36,013 nucleotides of DNA, taken from a virus. The notes beneath the pieces are model-generated. The model had not been told where the DNA came from, ran no database searches, and saw only the letters and a list, made by a program, of their open reading frames with translations. This document shows, one piece after another, positions 2,301 through 29,315 of the stretch. The stretch's first letter is position 1; each line of letters begins with the position of its first letter. The position numbers and the translations under genes are program-made. The stretch lies in the UHGV virus genome UHGV-0124616; one strand, given 5' to 3'.

Positions 2301-2474
2301 TAGCGATAATTTTACTCATCATCCTTCACATCTGGCTCTGTAGACAGGGTGGTGATCACTTCTGGAGTGAATCCAGATTAAACATCTCATTGCTGATGCT
2401 TGATATTGAGCATCTGGCGCGCAGTAAGGGGCTGCGTTGAGATAAGAGCCAGTTCATTACAAATACCAGGATTT

Positions 2475-2498
2475 AGCCTCGCATTCGCGGGGCTTTTT
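2475..2498 (+). terminator. Rho-independent terminator downstream of the lysis cassette
   Basis: Hairpin GCCTCGC-ATTC-GCGGGGC followed by TTTTT. The same 16-nt core recurs inverted at 23457-23472. Confidence 0.5.
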
Positions 2499-2642
2499 AT
2501 ATCTGAATTTCACAGCGCATCTCACGCGCATATTAACGAGAGCCTTTCAGTAAGCGAGCCTGAGAAATGCCGTTATAGGTGGCGACCTCTCTCGGGCGGC
2601 TTTTCTGTGAGACAGGCTCACTTTCTAAAAGGTAAAGACGCT

Positions 2643-3167
2643 ATGAATAATCATTCAGTTATTCCAGCCTTCGACTTCCGAGAAATGGTGCAAGCCAAAA
2701 ACGGAGAGGTCGTTACCACATCCAGAAAAATTGCCAAGTACTTCGGCAAGCGACACGGTGATGTTCTCAGGAAAATCGAGCAGGTTAAGGCTGATTGCTC
2801 GCGTGAGTTTAGCCAACGCAATTTTGCGTCGGCTGATTATATCGATGAGCAGGGCAAGGTTCGCCCGATGTACAGCCTGACGAAAGATGGCTGGATCATG
2901 GTTGTGATGGGGTTCACCGGGAAAGCTGCTGCGGCAATCAAGGAGAGCTATATCGCAGCATTCAACTGGATGGCAGAGCAACTGAGCCGCCGCATGGCAA
3001 TTGGCGAAGAAATGCAGCACCGCTACGCCATCAAAGAAACACGCTCAAAGCTGAAAGGTACGATCGGCAGTCGGTTAATGAACGAACGGAAGAAAGAGAA
3101 GCGTGTCCTGGCTGTCGAGCATGAATACATCTTGCAGGTGACGCAGCCCGAATTGCTGATTAATTGA
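2643..3167 (+). CDS. rha: Rha family phage regulatory protein (antirepressor-like)
   Basis: 174 aa from the internal ATG of ORF 2400..3167. Motif SRKIAKYFGKRHGDVLRKIE is typical of the Rha N-terminal domain. The upstream 81 codons of the track ORF are regarded as non-coding leader. Confidence 0.75.
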   Translation: MNNHSVIPAFDFREMVQAKNGEVVTTSRKIAKYFGKRHGDVLRKIEQVKADCSREFSQRNFASADYIDEQGKVRPMYSLTKDGWIMVVMGFTGKAAAAIKESYIAAFNWMAEQLSRRMAIGEEMQHRYAIKETRSKLKGTIGSRLMNERKKEKRVLAVEHEYILQVTQPELLIN

Positions 3168-6744: not shown

Positions 6745-8910
6745 ATGGCCGACGAAAACAGACTCAATTCCATTCTGTGTAAGTTTGACGCAGACTGGAT
6801 GGCGAGCGATGAAGCCAGAACCGAGGCGACAAATGACCTGTATTTTAGCCGAGTGTCGCAATGGGATGACTGGCTATCAAACTACACCACCCTGCAATAT
6901 CGCGGACAATTCGATGTTGTCCGCCCGGTGGTCAGGAAGTTGGTCGCAGAGATGCGCCGGAACCCTATCGACGTTCTCTTCCGACCAAAAGACGGTGCTA
7001 ATCCTGATGCAGCCGATGTGTTGATGGGGATGTATCGTACTGATATGCGCCATAACACGGCAAAAATTGCCGTTAACATTGGCGTTCGTGAGCAGATAGA
7101 GTCCGGCGTTGGTGCATGGCGTCTGGTCACGCAGTACGAAGACAACGATCCAACAAGCAACAATCAGGTAATTCGACGCCTGCCAATTCATGAAGCCTGC
7201 TCACACGTCATATGGGACGCCAACAGCAAGCAGATGGATAAGAGCGACGCTAAGCACTGCACGGTGATTAACGCCTTGTCGCGCAATGGCTGGAAAGAGT
7301 TTGCAGAGGATTACGGTATTGATCCGGACACCTTGCCATCTTTCCAGAATCCGAACGATACATGGCTGTTTCCGTGGGTATCGAATGATGTCGTCTACGT
7401 CGCTGAGTATTACGAGGTCGAAGAGAAGAAAGAGAAAGTCTTCATCTACCGCGACCCGCTGACAGGTGAGCCGGTAAGCTATTACCAGCAGGATATCAAA
7501 GACGTCATCGACGACCTGGCTAATCGTGGATTCATTAAGGTAGCAGAGCGCAAGGTGAAGCGTCGGCGTGTGTATAAGTCGATCATCACCTGTACGCAGA
7601 TACTGAAAGACCGCGAGAAGATAGCCGGAGAGCATATTCCAATCGTTCCAGTGTATGGTGAATGGTCATTCGCTGGTGACAAGGAGTGCTACGAAGGAGT
7701 GGTAAGGCTGACGAAAGACGGTCAACGCCTTCGTAACATGATCATGTCGTTCAACGCCGATATTGTTGCTCGTTCACCGAAGAAGAAACCGACCTTCTTC
7801 CCTGAGCAAATCGAAGGCTACGAATACATGTACGGTGGAAATGATGACTATCCGTACTATCTGCAGAACAGGACCGATGAAAACGGTAACGACCTGCCGA
7901 TTGGTCCAATCTCCTACATGGAAAACCCTGAAGTGCCGCAAGCCAACGCTTACATGCTTGAGGCTGCCACCAACGCAGTGAAAGAGGTGGCTAGTCTTGG
8001 CGTGGATGCGCAGGCAGCAAACTCTCAGGTCGCTTTCGATACTGTCAATCAACTGAACATGCGAGCAGACCTTGAGACATATGTGTTTCAGGATAACCTG
8101 GCTACCGCAATGCGACGTGATGGCGAGATTTATGCCTCAATGGTCAACGATATTTATGACGTTCCTCGTCATGTAACGCTGACACTTGAAGATGGTAGCG
8201 AGAAAGACGTTCAACTCTACGCGCAAGTTGTCGATTACCAGTCCGGTAATGTGGTCACACTCAACGACATTCGCGGTCGCTATGAGTGCTATACAGACGT
8301 TGGACCATCCTTCCAGAGTATGAAGGAACAGAACCGCGCAGAGATTCAGGAGTTACTCACCAAGGTTCCACAAGGTACTCCAGAGTTCCAGATGCTGATG
8401 CTGCAATACTTCACGCTGCTTGATGGTAAAGGCGTCGAGATGATGCGAGAGTACGCGAACAAGCAACTGGTGATGATGGGGCTGAAGAAACCAGAAACAC
8501 CTGAAGAGATGGAGATGGTACAGCAGGCTCAACAGCAGCCGCAGCAGCCATCAGCAGAGCAAATTCAGGCGCAGGGTATCCTTCTGCAAGGTCAGGCTGA
8601 ATTGCTCAAGGCAGAGAACCAACAGGCGCAGATTCAGGTTGAAGCCGCCAAGGTTGAAGCCCAAAACCAACTCAACGCCGCGAAGATTGCGGAAATCTTC
8701 AACAATATGGACCTCGACAAGCAGGCAGAACTGCGTGAGTACCTCAAGCTCGTAGGTCAATTCCAGCAACAGCGCAGCAAAGATGCTCGTGCTAACGCTG
8801 AGCTGCTTCTTAAAGATGCAGACCAGACTCATTCACAACGCATGGATTTCGCGAATCTTATGCGTCAAGTTCAAATCCCCTCCGGCGGAGTAGCCGAGAC
8901 ACCTCAATAA
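6745..8910 (+). CDS. Portal protein (P22 gp1-like)
   Basis: 721 aa with a Q-rich C-terminal coiled-coil barrel region. Position between TerL and scaffold. Confidence 0.95.
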
Positions 8911-9835: not shown

Positions 9836-11130
9836 TGGCATTAAATGAAGGTCAACTGGTCACGTATGCTCTGGATGAAATCATCGAAACCGTCCAGAAC
9901 CTGACGCCAATGGCGTCCAAAGTGACAAAATACACCCCTCCGGCAGAATCCATGCAGCGTTCAAGCAACACCGTGTGGATGCCTGTTGAGCAGGAAGCGC
10001 CAACCCAGACTGGCTGGGATTTAACTGGCAAGGCAACCGGGATTCTGGAGCTTTCCGTGAAATGCAACATGGGCGATCCGGATAACGATTTCTTCGAGCT
10101 TCGTGCAGATGACCTGCGTGATGAGCGTTCTTACCGTCGCCGCATCCAGGCATCCGCCAAAAAACTGGCGAATAACATTGAGTCAGCGATTGCCAAACAG
10201 GCAACTGAAATGGGCTCGCTTGTTGTTCACGATACCCGCGCAATTGGTCCATCTACTGGCCTGTCTGGCTGGGATTTTGTGTCTGATGCAGAGCGCCTGA
10301 TGTTCTCCAGAGAACTCAACCGCGACATGGGCATCAGTTACTTCCTGAACCCTGACGATTACCGCAAAGCAGGCCGTAACCTGGTAGATGGTGACATCTT
10401 CGGTCGCGTTCCTGAAGAAGCGTATCGCAACGGTACTATTCAGCGTCAGATTGCTGGCTTTGATGAAATTCTTCGCTCACCGAAACTTCCGGCAGTTACC
10501 AAGTCAACCGCTACTGGTGTAACTGTTTCTGGTGCGCAGAAGTTTAAGCCGCAGGCATACACCCTTGATACCGATGGTAACAAAGAGAACGTCGACAACC
10601 GTGTTGCAACGGTGACCGTATCTTCCACCACCGGATTTAAGCGCGGCGACAAAATCAGCTTCACTGGTGTGAAATTCCTGTCTCAGATGGCGAAGAACGT
10701 GCTGACTGATGATGCTACTTTCTCAATCACCCGTGTGATCGATGATACTCACATCGAAATCACGCCGAAACCGATTGCACTGGATGACGCTTCACTGACA
10801 AAAGAAGAGAAGGCTTACGCTAACGTAAACACATCTCTTGCTAATACCACTCCGGTAAACGTTCTGAACGTGGCAACAGCCACCGCTAACGTGTTCTGGG
10901 CTGATGACTCAATCCGCCTGCTATCTCAGCCGATCCCGGTAACCCATGAACTGTTTGCTGGCATGAAAACGTCTTCCTTCAGCATTCCTGGTATTGGTGT
11001 TAACGGCATCTTCGCAACGCAGGGTGATATCAACACTCTGTCTGGTAAGTGCCGTATTGCTGTGTGGTATTCAGCATGTGCTGTACGACCAGAGGCAATT
11101 GGTGTTGGTCTGCCTAACCAGACTGCGTGA
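9835..11130 (+). CDS. Major capsid (coat) protein (P22 gp5-like)
   Basis: 431 aa, [36 protein letters not shown]..., closely matching P22 coat as recalled. Confidence 0.97.
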
Positions 11131-16629: not shown

Positions 16630-18626
16630 TGGCTAAAGCATGGAAAGATGTTATCGCCTCTCCACAGTATCAGGCGTTAGCACCAGAACAAAAAGCGCAA
16701 GCTCAGGAGCAATACTTCAATGAAGTCGTGGCCCCGCAAGCCGGAGAAAATGCAGAGCAGGCTAAGCAAGCTTTCTATGCTGCCTATCCATTGCCATCTG
16801 TACAGCCAGTGGAGACACAGCAACCAGTAGCACAGCAACAACCACAGCAAAGTGGATTTATGTCTGATCTTGGCGAAGCAGTAAAAGAGACTGGTCGCGG
16901 ACTGGTGCAGGCTGGCGTGAACGTGGCAAATATACCTGCATCAGTTGCCGATGCTGTAACAAGCGCGGCGGCTTGGGCTGGCGGTAAACTCGGCATTGGC
17001 GATGGTACATATCAACCAGCGCCACGAGTAACAACGCAGGGATTAGAGCAGGACTTTGGCCTTCAGCAAGGCGCGCTGACTCCACAAACGACAGAGGGAA
17101 GGGTATTTGCTGAAGCATTGCCTTACCTCACTCCTGCTGGCGTTGAGAGAGCGGCGGTACAGGCACCAACACTTGCTGGTCGAATTGCTCAGGGGGCAAC
17201 TCGCCTTCTAGCAGAAAACGCAGTTGGATCACTTGCTGCAAATAGTGCGAAAGATGATGCGGAAGCACTCGCCACCGATTTAGGCGTTGGTGTACTTGCT
17301 GGCGGTGCTATTAACGCTGCTGGACGTGGATTAGGTGCTGCTTATCGTGGCGTTCGTGGTGCTATCGCGCCAGAAGCGCAGCAGGCTATCAGATTTGCAG
17401 AGCGTGAAGGAGTTCCTCTGCACACCACAGACCTGTTACAACCGACTTCCCGCATCGGTAAAATGGCGCAAACGACAGCAGAAAATATCCCCCTGGCTGG
17501 CACAAGCGGAATGAGAGCAACGCAACAGGAAGCGAGAAGCCAGTTGGTTCAGAGATTTGCTGATAAATTCGGTGAGTATGATCCAGCGGTTGTTATTGAC
17601 AGCCTTAAAGCGAAAACATCAGGAATTCGTCGCGCTGCAGGAAATCGACTGGAGCAGGTTCAGAATGCTATGGCGGGAATAAACATTCAGCCTGCAAGAG
17701 CAATTCAGCAGATTGATACAGAAATATCTAACCTGCAGAAGCTTGGTAAGGTTGCTGATAACGAGACTATTTCAAAACTTCAGTCCTATCGTGATGAGCT
17801 TGTTCGCAATGCTGGTCCTGATGGTCCGGTAAATCTGGATTTGAAGCAATTAAGCGATCTGCGCAGCCAGTTCAGAATGGACGTAAAGGGTGAGCGACCA
17901 GTGTTACCAAACCGTTCCGATGCTGCCATTCAGCGCGTTTACAAGGCAATGACCGACGATATCAATGGTGCCATTGGTCAGAATCTTGGCAACGATACTC
18001 TACGTAAATATCAGCAGGCCAATGCCGTCTACGCTGACGAAGCAGCGAAATTAAAGAATACAAGGCTGAAGAATGTTCTCATGAAAGGCGACCTGACGCC
18101 GGAAGTTGTCAACAACATGCTATTCAGCAAGAACAAATCGGAAATTAAGACGCTGTATAACTCAGTTGGTCGTGTTGGTAGGGCGCAAATGCGCAATGGC
18201 ATCATTGGGAAGGCGATGGAGAAATCAGGTGGATCCCCTGACCAGTTCCTTCAACAGCTTAACATCCTGCAAAACCAGACTGGCATCACATTTAAGGGGC
18301 AGGACGCTGCTTATCTGAAAGGATTAAAAAACTATCTGCAATCCACGCAGCAGGCTGCAAAAGCGGCAGTAACAACACCAACAGGGCAGCAAACCATCCC
18401 GTTCATTATCGGGTATGGTACGGCAATGAACCCGGCGACAACTGGAGCAGCAGTAAGCTACGGACTTCTTGCTCGCGCCTATGAGAGCGAGCCATTCAGA
18501 AATGCAATGCTCCGAATGGCAAACACATCACGCGGATCAACAGCGTTTGAGAAAGCCATGCAGCAGGCGCAAAAGGCCATTAACGCCCTGACTCAGGGTG
18601 CCAAGTCTGATGCGTTGTCAGAATAG
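16629..18626 (+). CDS. Ejection protein, P22 gp16-like
   Basis: 665 aa. Last gene of the ejection-protein trio, by synteny. Confidence 0.8.
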   Translation: MAKAWKDVIASPQYQALAPEQKAQAQEQYFNEVVAPQAGENAEQAKQAFYAAYPLPSVQPVETQQPVAQQQPQQSGFMSDLGEAVKETGRGLVQAGVNVANIPASVADAVTSAAAWAGGKLGIGDGTYQPAPRVTTQGLEQDFGLQQGALTPQTTEGRVFAEALPYLTPAGVERAAVQAPTLAGRIAQGATRLLAENAVGSLAANSAKDDAEALATDLGVGVLAGGAINAAGRGLGAAYRGVRGAIAPEAQQAIRFAEREGVPLHTTDLLQPTSRIGKMAQTTAENIPLAGTSGMRATQQEARSQLVQRFADKFGEYDPAVVIDSLKAKTSGIRRAAGNRLEQVQNAMAGINIQPARAIQQIDTEISNLQKLGKVADNETISKLQSYRDELVRNAGPDGPVNLDLKQLSDLRSQFRMDVKGERPVLPNRSDAAIQRVYKAMTDDINGAIGQNLGNDTLRKYQQANAVYADEAAKLKNTRLKNVLMKGDLTPEVVNNMLFSKNKSEIKTLYNSVGRVGRAQMRNGIIGKAMEKSGGSPDQFLQQLNILQNQTGITFKGQDAAYLKGLKNYLQSTQQAAKAAVTTPTGQQTIPFIIGYGTAMNPATTGAAVSYGLLARAYESEPFRNAMLRMANTSRGSTAFEKAMQQAQKAINALTQGAKSDALSE

Positions 18627-18715
18627 CTTCGCAAACACCAGGAACGTGCAAAAACCAAATATGTAGAACGCAATATTCAGCATATCTCTTTGCATAAATC
18701 CTCCGTAACTGATAG

Positions 18716-18976
18716 TTAGCTGCTGTCTTTTTTATATAGCTCTTTGAGCGTATCAAAGACAATTTTCTTAACCATATCAGATTGTTGTTCTGCCATACGC
18801 TCTGCATCGTCAATGTAAACTGATGCAGAGCTTTGTTTAGCCAATGATTCTTCAATCGCTGCAATTATCTCTGAGTTCAGAGACCTGTTATTCATCTTCG
18901 CACGCTGTTTAATTTTCGCGTGGAGTTCATGCGGAAGTCTCAAGTGAAACTGCGCCTCGTCGTATTTGCTGCACAT
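18716..18976 (-). CDS. mnt: Mnt-like repressor (Arc/MetJ ribbon-helix-helix family)
   Basis: FHLRLPHELHAKIKQRAKMNNRSLNSEIIAAIEESL...MVKKIVFDTLKELYKK parallels P22 Mnt as recalled. Start taken at the internal ATG with RBS GGTGAGG. Confidence 0.8.
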   Translation of the reverse strand: MCSKYDEAQFHLRLPHELHAKIKQRAKMNNRSLNSEIIAAIEESLAKQSSASVYIDDAERMAEQQSDMVKKIVFDTLKELYKKDSS

Positions 18977-19050
18977 CCTTGATGCCTCACCAGTTGGGTG
19001 GAATTGCATCGTAACCTACTGGATAAATACTCAATAGTACCATTTCGGTA

Positions 19051-19071
19051 TGCAATCACATCATGATTGCA
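19051..19071. promoter_or_regulatory. Perfect 8-5-8 inverted repeat TGCAATCA-CATCA-TGATTGCA; candidate operator
   Basis: Seen directly in the mnt/tailspike divergent intergenic region, about 27 bp upstream of the tailspike ATG. Confidence 0.45.
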
Positions 19072-19097
19072 TCATATCATTCGTCTGGAGCAATGAA

Positions 19098-21008
19098 ATG
19101 TCAGATATCACCGCAAATGTTGTGGTAAGCATGCCTTCGCAACTCTTCACTATGGCTCGTTCTTTTAAAGCCGTAGCCAATGGCAAAATTTATATCGGTA
19201 AAATTGACACTGACCCGGTAAATCCTGAAAACCAGATTCAGGTTTATGTGGAGAACGAAGACGGCTCTCACGTTCCTGTTTCGCAACCAATCATCATTAA
19301 CGCTGCTGGATATCCGGTATATAACGGACAGATTGCCAAGTTCGTAACTGTGCAAGGCCATTCTATGGCTGTTTATGATGCATATGGTTCGCAGCAGTTC
19401 TATTTTCCGAATGTGTTGAAGTATGATCCTGATCAGTTTCGTCAGGAACTGGCAGGTAATAGTGGTGCGTCACAGATTGGTTCCTCATCAGGGAATACTG
19501 TTCAACAAGAAATAGATCGTCTAAATAATTTTGGTTATGCTTATGGTGTTAGATTAAGCGCGTATATGCATGAAAGCGACCCCTTAACAAGCGCCCTGAC
19601 TGCATCACGGGAAAAAAGACTACCACTTGTCATTGATTGTGATGCGACATATAAAACTTTAGTGGTTTACAGTAATGACAGAATAATTGGCTGCGGTGAT
19701 CATACATTAACAAAATCCGGTAATGATAAGCCATCCATTCCACCGGCACAACAACCAGAACGCCCTTCTGGTTCGATGACTAATTTTAGTGAAATTGATG
19801 CAGGTATCGTTATTGTTCACCCTGACAATGGGTCGGCAACCAATATTATTATTTCAGGGTTTAACCTCGCGACTAACTCACATTGCGACTATGCGATACA
19901 TTGCTCTTTCATGTCTTTTACAAAAATAGAAGATATGAAGTTCAACGGGTACAAGCGTGGGATTAAATGGTACAACGCCTATGGAAATCAGCTATCCAGA
20001 ATATTTTCACTTTACTACTATTCTGTCACTGATGTTTTTTCAGACTATATTTGCTACGATTTTTCTGACGGTAACTACCCATCAGGCACATCAAATACCC
20101 TAACAAACGTAACATGCACCAACTATAAGAAATGCTATTACGTAGCAAATCTAAACTACTCTACATTTACCAATTGTGGTGGTGAAGGAGTAGAGTCACC
20201 AACACCAGTATCCACAGGAAACATCCCACAGACCTTCGAGTTTGTTAATTGCCCTAATATTGTTTTAAACACTCCATATACCGAAAATTTAAAAGGTGGT
20301 TTTATCAGAGCAGTTAGTGATGCTTCAGGTGTTTTTAGTGGTGCTTCTACAATAGTTATTAATGGGCCAGAAGCTGTTGTTGGTATAGCAGGGACAACTG
20401 CAGATGTTGGGGCTAAGTTGTTAGACATTCGCGGTTCTGTTAACTGTGTAATAAATGGCGGGTACATGACAGGTGCGGCGAGCGGGTATTTCCTTGAGTT
20501 TGGCGGGGCATCGGATGACGCAACCCTTACGATAATAGGGATGGAAATGCGCAATGTATTAGAACAAATACGAAGCCACTTTGGCTATAACGGAATTAAC
20601 TCTATAAAAGGGTTAAGGCCTATGCAGTTACTAAGAAAAGGTATAAGTGATGCAACTGGAAGTGGAATTGTTAACTGGAAAAGTGCGTCTATAGACGATT
20701 ACTTTATGAATGCTGGTAATTATACAAAAACAGCGCTTGGTGGATTTTATAAGATAGAAATTACGTTACCCATAGGATCTTCCGCATCAGGCGGAGAAGT
20801 TCAACTCTTGCTGTCAGATACGGATACAGACAATGGAGTTATAATTTCACAATGCTATGTTCCTCCAGTGTCAAGCGGTAAGTTTACTGCCTCCATAAGC
20901 TACGAGGGTAGATTGCCAGGTGGAAAGTTTCTTTATGTAAAAACTAATAATGCCAATTGGTCATCTGGATACGATCCAGACTCAATATTTAATGTTGTTC
21001 TGAAATAA
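19098..21008 (+). CDS. Tailspike protein: P22 gp9-like head-binding domain fused to a divergent receptor-binding domain
   Basis: Start at the internal ATG with RBS GGAG. The first ~110 residues ([43 protein letters not shown]...) match the P22 tailspike as recalled; the remainder is unrelated and visibly AT-richer. Confidence 0.9.
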
Positions 21009-29180: not shown

Positions 29181-29315
29181 AAGAAGATTTCCAATAATCA
29201 GAACAAGTCGGCTCCTGTTTAGTTACGAGCGACATTGCTCCGTGTATTCACTCGTTGGAATGAATACACAGTGCAGTATTTATTCTGTTGTTTATGCCAA
29301 AAATAAAGGACACCA

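Follow-up and report, generated by a model that had tools for sequence, protein, structure and literature searches.

In P22-like phages, the interval between gene 16 and the tailspike gene, which in P22 itself carries the immI region (sieA-mnt-arc-sar-ant), has been described as an 'ant moron' that occurs in ten types in sixteen genomes. ST64T, ST104 and Para1 retain only mnt of this region, and it has been suggested that transcription entering the tailspike gene may be influenced by Mnt and Arc (Villafane et al. 2008, PMC2629481). For phage L, it has been said that its lone mnt 'could have acquired another function or be a remnant' (Zaworski et al. 2021, PMC8022706), and what Mnt does in P22-like phages that lack the antirepressor is a recognized gap (Villafane 2008; Zaworski 2021). 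In macrophages, the lone-mnt prophage Gally shows a 50-fold increase of its mnt operon and an increase of its tailspike gene, with late structural genes down (bioRxiv 10.1101/2022.10.28.514194), which lends indirect support to the view that this end of the prophage may be transcribed on its own. The papers on Sf101 and Kapi1 do not discuss mnt.

Here we describe the corresponding locus of UHGV virus genome UHGV-0124616, a stretch of 36,013 nucleotides (the window) that is the genome of a P22-like (Lederbergvirus) phage. An mnt gene stands between the gene-16 homologue and the tailspike gene, and the gap between mnt and the tailspike gene holds, among other elements, a 17-bp dyad next to the predicted mnt promoter (Pmnt) and a perfect 9-5-9 inverted repeat close to the tailspike start codon (Table 1). 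The reading that we favor, with moderate confidence, is that the locus is a reduced immI region, or 'ant moron', in which Mnt would bind the 17-bp dyad, and that the 9-5-9 repeat would be a separate stem-loop of the tailspike leader.

Table 1. Coordinates of the genes and sequence elements at the mnt-tailspike locus of the window.
Feature	Position	Strand	Description
Gene-16 (DNA transfer) homologue	ends 18626		
Unannotated 25-codon open reading frame, MQRDMLNIAFYIFGFCTFLVFAKLF	18618..18695	minus	From the list of open reading frames; GGAGG Shine-Dalgarno sequence 4 nt before ATG
mnt	18716..18976	minus	86 aa; ribbon-helix-helix repressor with Mnt C-terminal tetramerisation domain; recognition strand QFHLR
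Inverted repeat CACC-N5-GGTG	18988..19000	minus	Within the predicted leader of mnt, immediately before its ribosome-binding site
Predicted Pmnt	19008..19034	minus	−35 TTGAGT (19034->19029), 15-bp spacer, −10 TACGAT (19013->19008)
Predicted Mnt operator, AGTACCATTTCGGTATG	19036..19052	.	17-bp dyad, core TACC-N5-GGTA, centre 19044
Inverted repeat ATGCAATCA-CATCA-TGATTGCAT	19050..19072	plus	Perfect 9-5-9; arms 19050-19058 and 19064-19072
Tailspike Shine-Dalgarno sequence, CTGGAG	19085..19090	plus	Assigned by eye; kept across leader alleles
Tailspike gene	19098..21008	plus	P22-type head-binding N-terminal domain, Head_binding 2.6e-67

A lone mnt gene between gene 16 and the tailspike gene

Profile and structure matches identify the leftward 86-aa open reading frame (ORF) as a true Mnt homologue. 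Specifically, its product matches the Pfam families Arc/RHH (PF03869, 7.5e-15) and Repressor_Mnt (PF11423, 3.4e-14), and it matches the solved structures of P22 Mnt, PDB 1MNT (3.4e-19, residues 6-79) and 1QEY (1.6e-8). PF03869 and 1MNT represent the ribbon-helix-helix (Arc-like) DNA-binding domain of the Mnt family, while PF11423 and 1QEY represent its C-terminal tetramerisation helix. The position of the gene, between the gene-16 homologue and the tailspike gene and opposite to the late operon, is also that of the family, and the same 86-aa start is used in the RefSeq annotation. Residue 2 is Cys in the window (18972) and Tyr in nearly all relatives.

The gaps flanking mnt measure 89 bp on the gene-16 side and 121 bp on the tailspike side. 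The initial annotation of this DNA had placed a Mnt-like gene alone between gene 16 and the tailspike gene, and in this it was right, as the ORF list contains no arc-, ant- or sieA-sized ORF in either gap. Its further statement that the interval had been emptied to Mnt holds for arc, ant and sieA and overlooks the conserved 25-codon ORF that lies there as well, and its 122-bp intergenic region with a perfect repeat does contain such a repeat and is 121 bp long. No plus-strand ORF of at least 25 aa is present between 18977 and 19097, and the 121-bp gap leads straight into the tailspike gene.

Like P22 immI, the locus encodes a protein with the Mnt fold and tetramerisation domain, lies between gene 16 and the tailspike gene, has mnt in leftward orientation and has the same Pmnt architecture. 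The orientation of mnt away from the tailspike gene, to which the initial annotation had drawn attention, is the normal one for P22, whose mnt likewise points away from arc-ant-gene 9. Unlike P22 immI, the window lacks arc, ant, sar and sieA. There is no arc and ant pair downstream of Pant in the window, and no Pant overlaps the Mnt operator, the promoter scan having returned no plus-strand promoter; at the positions of the P22 Pant hexamers, which are unrecognisable here, the window reads TTGCAT, 14 bp and TAAATA (ATGGCA in the consensus). A search of 18400-19400 against Rfam gave no match at E values up to 1, hence none to the sar antisense RNA, whose pairing partner, ant, is missing as well. 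The two phages also differ in specificity elements, with recognition strand QFHLR, core TACC-N5-GGTA and a 15-bp Pmnt spacer in the window, and HFNFR and GGTCCACnGTGGACC in P22.

Other described phages resemble the window to differing degrees. In ST64T, ST104, L, ST160, SE1 and Gally, immI is reduced to mnt, which is transcribed divergently from the tailspike gene at a distance of about 135 bp and is accompanied by an operator-like dyad abutting Pmnt; these phages differ from the window in their recognition strand (QFNLR), their dyad (AGACCACnGTGGTCT), the P22-type hairpin of their tailspike leader (CCGTAGC-CAY-GCTGCGG) and further small genes between gene 16 and mnt. Sf101, IME10 and related E. 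coli and Shigella prophages are about 97% identical to the window from gene 16 through mnt to the start of the tailspike gene, including the operator and the repeat. Sf101 differs by a G at the equivalent of 19066, which makes the palindrome imperfect, by a Tyr at Mnt residue 2 and in the C-terminal part of the tailspike. The gene 13 - gene 14 region of Sf6 resembles the window in the sequence that follows gene 16/13, including the 25-codon ORF, in a similar tailspike 5′ end and in a hairpin 11 nt before the Shine-Dalgarno sequence, and differs in the sequence of that hairpin (CCGGACA-N10-TGTCCGG) and in lacking mnt, Pmnt and the operator.

The layout gene 16 - mnt - tailspike occurs in Sf101, in IME10 and in 254 of 5426 complete E. 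coli genomes, a lone mnt beside the tailspike gene is also present in ST160, L, Gally, VSe13 and JEP4, and the Mnt protein falls in very large clusters. Thus, contrary to the view that a lone Mnt beside the tailspike gene is unusual, the arrangement is common and already published. What the window adds is modest, namely an operator class, a table of recognition strands and operators, a leader hairpin and a small ORF, and it is otherwise a typical member of a known arrangement.

The lone mnt is nevertheless kept by selection, as its ratio of nonsynonymous to synonymous polymorphism (pN/pS) across 55 distinct alleles is 0.144 overall and 0.044 for codons 1-45, the DNA-binding half. The gene is under purifying selection, is functional and does not resemble a decaying remnant, and it is maintained in this way in about 5% of complete E. 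coli genomes.

The predicted Mnt operator adjoins Pmnt

The P22 record annotates Pmnt (TTGAGA-17-TATCAT), Pant and a Mnt operator, AGGTCCACCGTGGACCT, with a single base between its end and the −35 element of Pmnt. When the window is anchored on its own −35 element, TTGAGT, the dyad AGTACCATTTCGGTATG falls exactly at the position of the P22 operator, with the same 1-bp gap to the −35 element and the same length of 17 bp. We therefore predict that this dyad is the Mnt operator of the window.

The prediction is in agreement with the pattern of conservation. An alignment of eight lineages with the same Mnt type (the lineages named are E. coli, Escherichia sp. E1V33, Salmonella VSe13, E. coli JEP4, Buttiauxella, Serratia and Citrobacter) contains three invariant blocks: TACCnAAAnGGTAC together with TTG of the −35 element, TACGATGC at the −10 element, and AGGCAT near the mnt ribosome-binding site. 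The sequence past the operator diverges. The core TACC-N5-GGTA is invariant in seven of the eight lineages, and the exception carries a stop codon in mnt. Specifically, mnt of a Citrobacter sp. (locus L209, 3001..3252) has a stop at codon 5, and its operator has the half-site AGTA in place of GGTA, a pattern that fits a decay of the repressor together with its site.

Furthermore, the operator class tracks the class of the Mnt recognition strand across genera. The strand HFNFR (P22, epsilon34, Pluralibacter and Pectobacterium) goes with the operator GGTCCACnGTGGACC, QFNLR (L, ST160 and Gally) with AGACCACnGTGGTCT, QFNFR (Phlomobacter) with ATATCACnGTGATAT, and QFHLR (the window and its relatives) with TACC-N5-GGTA; Providencia has a partial, degenerate form of the AGACCACnGTGGTCT dyad. 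The Mnt proteins of VSe13 and JEP4 are only about 60% identical overall to that of the window, and they share its N-terminal half and its operator. The positions that differ between the classes (His6 and Asn8) are among the residues reported to set operator recognition in P22 Mnt. As read from these alignments, all of the Mnt-type operators compared are compact dyads of 15-17 bp. The comparison provides a small natural table of recognition strand against operator for the ribbon-helix-helix family, and a concrete, testable candidate operator for one widespread class of Mnt.

The window contains a single match to the full operator and no second good Mnt target. A relaxed pattern gives four more matches, with 2 mismatches each, none of which is close to a promoter or to the Rha/Ant-like gene described below. 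The core TACC-N5-GGTA alone occurs three times in the window, compared with about 0.6 expected, and the excess is probably due to chance. The two further cores, at 8236..8248 and 10845..10857 (TACCAGTCCGGTA and TACCACTCCGGTA), were rejected as targets, as they lie inside the portal and coat genes. A minus-strand promoter match, CTGACA-17-AATGAT (19104->19076), was likewise discarded, as it scores 9/12, which is at chance level, and is not kept in the other leader allele.

A putative stem-loop in the tailspike leader

The 9-5-9 repeat lies on the tailspike side of the gap. The initial annotation had reported a perfect 8-5-8 palindrome at 19051-19071, about 27 bp upstream of the tailspike ATG; a perfect repeat does lie upstream of the tailspike gene, with arms that are longer by one base pair, and it ends 25 nt before the ATG and 12 nt upstream of the Shine-Dalgarno sequence. 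The final 3 bp of the predicted operator also belong to its left arm. Perfect inverted repeats with arms of at least 9 bp and loops of 3-10 nt occur four times in the window, with 1.55 expected, and the repeat is locally beyond chance, because only about 0.005 would be expected in a 121-bp interval. The other three perfect 9-bp repeats are at 29242, 32464 and 33494; the second of these is situated between the repressor gene and cro and is a possible immC operator.

The variation of the repeat among relatives points to a structure in RNA. Among 73 related loci with the repeat, 58 read ATGCAATCACATCATGGTTGCAT, which matches at 8/9 pairs as DNA, six are perfect, and two have a C-G pair. The consensus base at 19066 is G, and it is the A of the window that makes the palindrome perfect. 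The consensus is thus asymmetric as DNA and forms a U·G pair in the plus-strand RNA, so that one stem pair occurs in three states, U-A, U·G and C-G. Five of five transitions in the stem preserve pairing in the plus-strand RNA, and most other variants of the repeat likewise lose symmetry as DNA and keep pairing as RNA. A palindrome bound by a protein would be expected to conserve its DNA symmetry, and 58 of the 73 loci are asymmetric at the A/G position. In addition, Escherichia sp. E1V33 has a homologous element, ATTCAAT-N9-ATTGAAT, with a compensatory change from G-C to U-A. The folding energy of the repeat is −9.6 kcal/mol (z = −3.2), and that of the consensus is −8.5 kcal/mol on the plus strand compared with −5.5 kcal/mol on the minus strand; the wider leader (19030-19120) does not fold significantly (z = −1.75).

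Hairpins also precede the tailspike Shine-Dalgarno sequence in phages with other leaders. P22, L, HK620 and CUS-3 have the P22-type hairpin given above, Sf6 has its own, and a third type, CCGCAG-N5-CTGTGG, is found in Buttiauxella, Citrobacter and Symbiopectobacterium. The P22, Sf6 and Buttiauxella types are unrelated in sequence and lie 11-13 nt before the Shine-Dalgarno sequence. Moreover, the same mnt, promoter and operator are also found joined to a P22-type leader without the repeat, with the junction exactly after GGTATG. An intrinsic terminator is not indicated, as the terminator scan was silent at the repeat, and the stem is A+U-rich and followed by CAUAUCAUUCGU. Taken as a pattern of variation and recurrence, these observations suggest that the 9-5-9 repeat is probably a stem-loop in the tailspike mRNA leader and not the Mnt operator.

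The left arm of the repeat opens with an ATG that is in frame with the tailspike gene and would add 16 codons (19050..19097); it has no Shine-Dalgarno sequence. RefSeq and Sf101 annotate the tailspike start at the equivalent of 19098.

A proposed role for Mnt and the leader stem-loop

On the basis of these comparisons, we propose that arc, ant, sar and sieA would have been lost from the locus and that mnt, Pmnt and a cognate operator would have been left. A Mnt tetramer would bind the dyad at 19036-19052, and not the 9-5-9 repeat, in a position abutting the −35 element of Pmnt as in P22, and would thereby set the level of a prophage-expressed leftward transcript that carries mnt and probably the 25-codon hydrophobic ORF. 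In the lysogen, Mnt could also hinder any rightward transcription that enters the tailspike gene. The 9-5-9 sequence of the late plus-strand transcript would form its stem-loop ahead of the tailspike Shine-Dalgarno sequence, where its role is most likely one of structure or stability, for example to guard the 5′ side of the tailspike message after processing; alternatively, it may free the ribosome-binding site from variable upstream sequence.

The initial annotation had suggested that a Mnt without an antirepressor may regulate itself or the tailspike gene, with the palindrome as its site. An ant-independent role of this kind, in which Mnt would for instance regulate itself or control transcription at the tailspike junction, is plausible, because a lone Mnt with the QFHLR strand and its matching operator are kept together beside tail genes across Escherichia, Salmonella, Buttiauxella and Serratia; the choice of the palindrome as the site did not hold up, as discussed below. 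More tentatively, lone Mnt-operator modules, instead of being leftovers, might form a long-lived, ant-independent unit that is retained next to the tail gene across several enterobacterial genera and has specificity classes of its own (QFHLR with TACC-N5-GGTA, and QFNLR with AGACCAC). In that case Mnt would control prophage-state transcription of the right end of the prophage, meaning its own operon, the 25-residue membrane peptide and possibly the tailspike gene, with a leader hairpin of conserved structure tuning the tailspike mRNA; we regard this broader picture as possible and less likely than not to be correct in full. If Mnt does govern expression of the tailspike end or of a membrane peptide in the prophage state, this would be a modest addition to the biology of lysogenic conversion.

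Several observations weigh against the proposal. With respect to the operator, whose assignment is a prediction from homology and covariation, the right half-site is mutated in nine of 80 related loci, and the constraint on it is accordingly not absolute. With respect to Pmnt, the spacer is 15 bp in the window (19014..19028) and in Escherichia sp. E1V33, compared with 17 bp in VSe13, JEP4, other E. coli, Buttiauxella, Serratia and Citrobacter, the shorter spacer having arisen by a 2-bp deletion (CGTAAAACC to CGTAACC); a generic promoter scan, which allowed spacers of 16-18 bp, gave no Pmnt. The same scan found no plus-strand promoter for the tailspike gene, and there is perhaps nothing rightward for Mnt to repress. 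With respect to the stem-loop, the RNA hairpin is statistically weak: two stem variants are transversions that break a pair, five of five compatible transitions correspond to p of about 0.05, and all variation in the close family consists of one-sided singletons, on which the shuffle control and covariation statistics are uninformative. Providencia has no clear hairpin at its tailspike leader, and the repeat matches no Rfam family. Finally, the repeat was never seen without a QFHLR-type mnt in IMG/VR, and for this reason linkage alone cannot separate the two. A repeat independent of mnt was considered and rejected, as mnt accompanies the exact pattern in 79 of the 80 IMG/VR loci that have it, and the remaining one carries an insertion sequence (IS).

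Alternative explanations

One alternative is that Mnt serves as a trans-acting immunity factor, which represses the ant promoter of superinfecting or co-resident phages with the same operator and so guards the prophage from induction. It draws on the facts that P22 Mnt blocks Ant synthesis (PMC2629481), that antirepressors work across prophages (PMC7380047), and that mnt is under purifying selection without a target gene in cis. However, no QFHLR Mnt or TACC operator was found beside arc or ant in the 80 IMG/VR loci, the phage collection or the species-level survey, a result that weakens the idea that Mnt silences incoming antirepressors. Nor does the window hold a second good operator, the region upstream of its Rha/Ant-like gene included. 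We consider this explanation unlikely.

The inverted repeat may instead act as DNA, either as the site of another protein or as a recombination 'boundary' where the variable region meets the tailspike gene, and this too we judge improbable. In its favor, GGTATG, next to the repeat, is the exact point at which the homology between alleles ends, relatives have an IS or HNH endonuclease genes inserted at the mnt-tailspike junction, the CUS-3 record annotates a 'boundary sequence' at this junction, and the change in E1V33, read as G-C to T-A, preserves DNA symmetry as well. Against it, the consensus lacks symmetry as DNA, pairing after the commonest changes is preserved only as plus-strand RNA, and no candidate binding protein was found.

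It is very unlikely that nothing at the locus is functional, with mnt a decaying remnant of immI and the palindrome a product of chance or hitch-hiking. The remnant possibility was raised for phage L (Zaworski et al., PMC8022706), stop codons occur in one IMG/VR copy of mnt and in the Citrobacter copy, and the perfect palindrome is a minority allele; the low pN/pS of mnt, above all in its DNA-binding half, the operator and promoter blocks that remain invariant across genera while their flanks diverge, and the recurrence of hairpins at a fixed distance from the Shine-Dalgarno sequence all speak for function.

Least probable of all is that the lone Mnt uses the 9-5-9 palindrome as its operator and through it represses a tailspike promoter, the mnt promoter or both: the repeat is perfect in the window and locally improbable, sits in a divergent intergenic region, always accompanies a QFHLR-type mnt in IMG/VR and overlaps the predicted operator by 3 bp, but its arms are unlike the TACC and GGTA half-sites, their centres are 14 bp apart in contrast to the compact 15-17-bp Mnt-type dyads, 67 of 73 relatives have it in a form that is imperfect as DNA, this Mnt and its operator also exist with another downstream segment that lacks it, no promoter was detected for it to occlude, and the position of the P22 operator is taken by the other dyad, which covaries with the recognition residues.

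Neighboring sequence features

The predicted mnt leader contains an inverted repeat of its own, CACC-N5-GGTG (Table 1). Among relatives its arms are kept and its loop is variable, and counterparts of other sequence are found in P22 (CACT..AGTG) and in ST160 and L (CACTT..AAGTG); it is possibly a conserved hairpin at the 5′ end of the mnt message. Between this repeat and Pmnt, position 19005 is T in the window and G in relatives.

The 25-codon ORF starts 21 nt after the mnt stop codon and overlaps the stop codon of the gene-16 homologue by 9 nt on the other strand. Across 30 distinct variants, its pN/pS is 0.23 in frame, compared with 1.3 and 4.6 in the other two frames. The peptide is hydrophobic, with one predicted hydrophobic helix. 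It has no match in PHROG, is absent from the protein collection and shows no similarity to P22 orf59a. The ORF is also present in Sf6, which is without mnt. It is probably co-transcribed with mnt, and we regard it as a candidate for a prophage-expressed membrane peptide.

The window also carries a Rha-like or antirepressor-like gene in the late region, between the lysis and terminase genes (ORF 2400..3167, plus strand, likely start 2644). Its product matches PHROG 518 at 6e-78 and several anti-repressor PHROGs, and no site resembling the Mnt operator lies upstream of it.

In relatives of the window, mobile elements seem to favor the mnt-tailspike junction. In one E. coli VE-T9 locus (L014 3909..4367) and in several IMG/VR loci, a reversed HNH endonuclease gene interrupts the tailspike ORF after its first 15 nt (ATGTCAGATATCACC/TAC...), at the equivalent of about 19112 in the window, with a second tailspike start after the HNH gene, and Kapi1 has an HNH gene at the junction too. 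In another locus (L173 12151..13470), an IS that encodes orfA (136 aa) and a transposase (301 aa) is inserted at GGTAT, between the predicted operator and the repeat.

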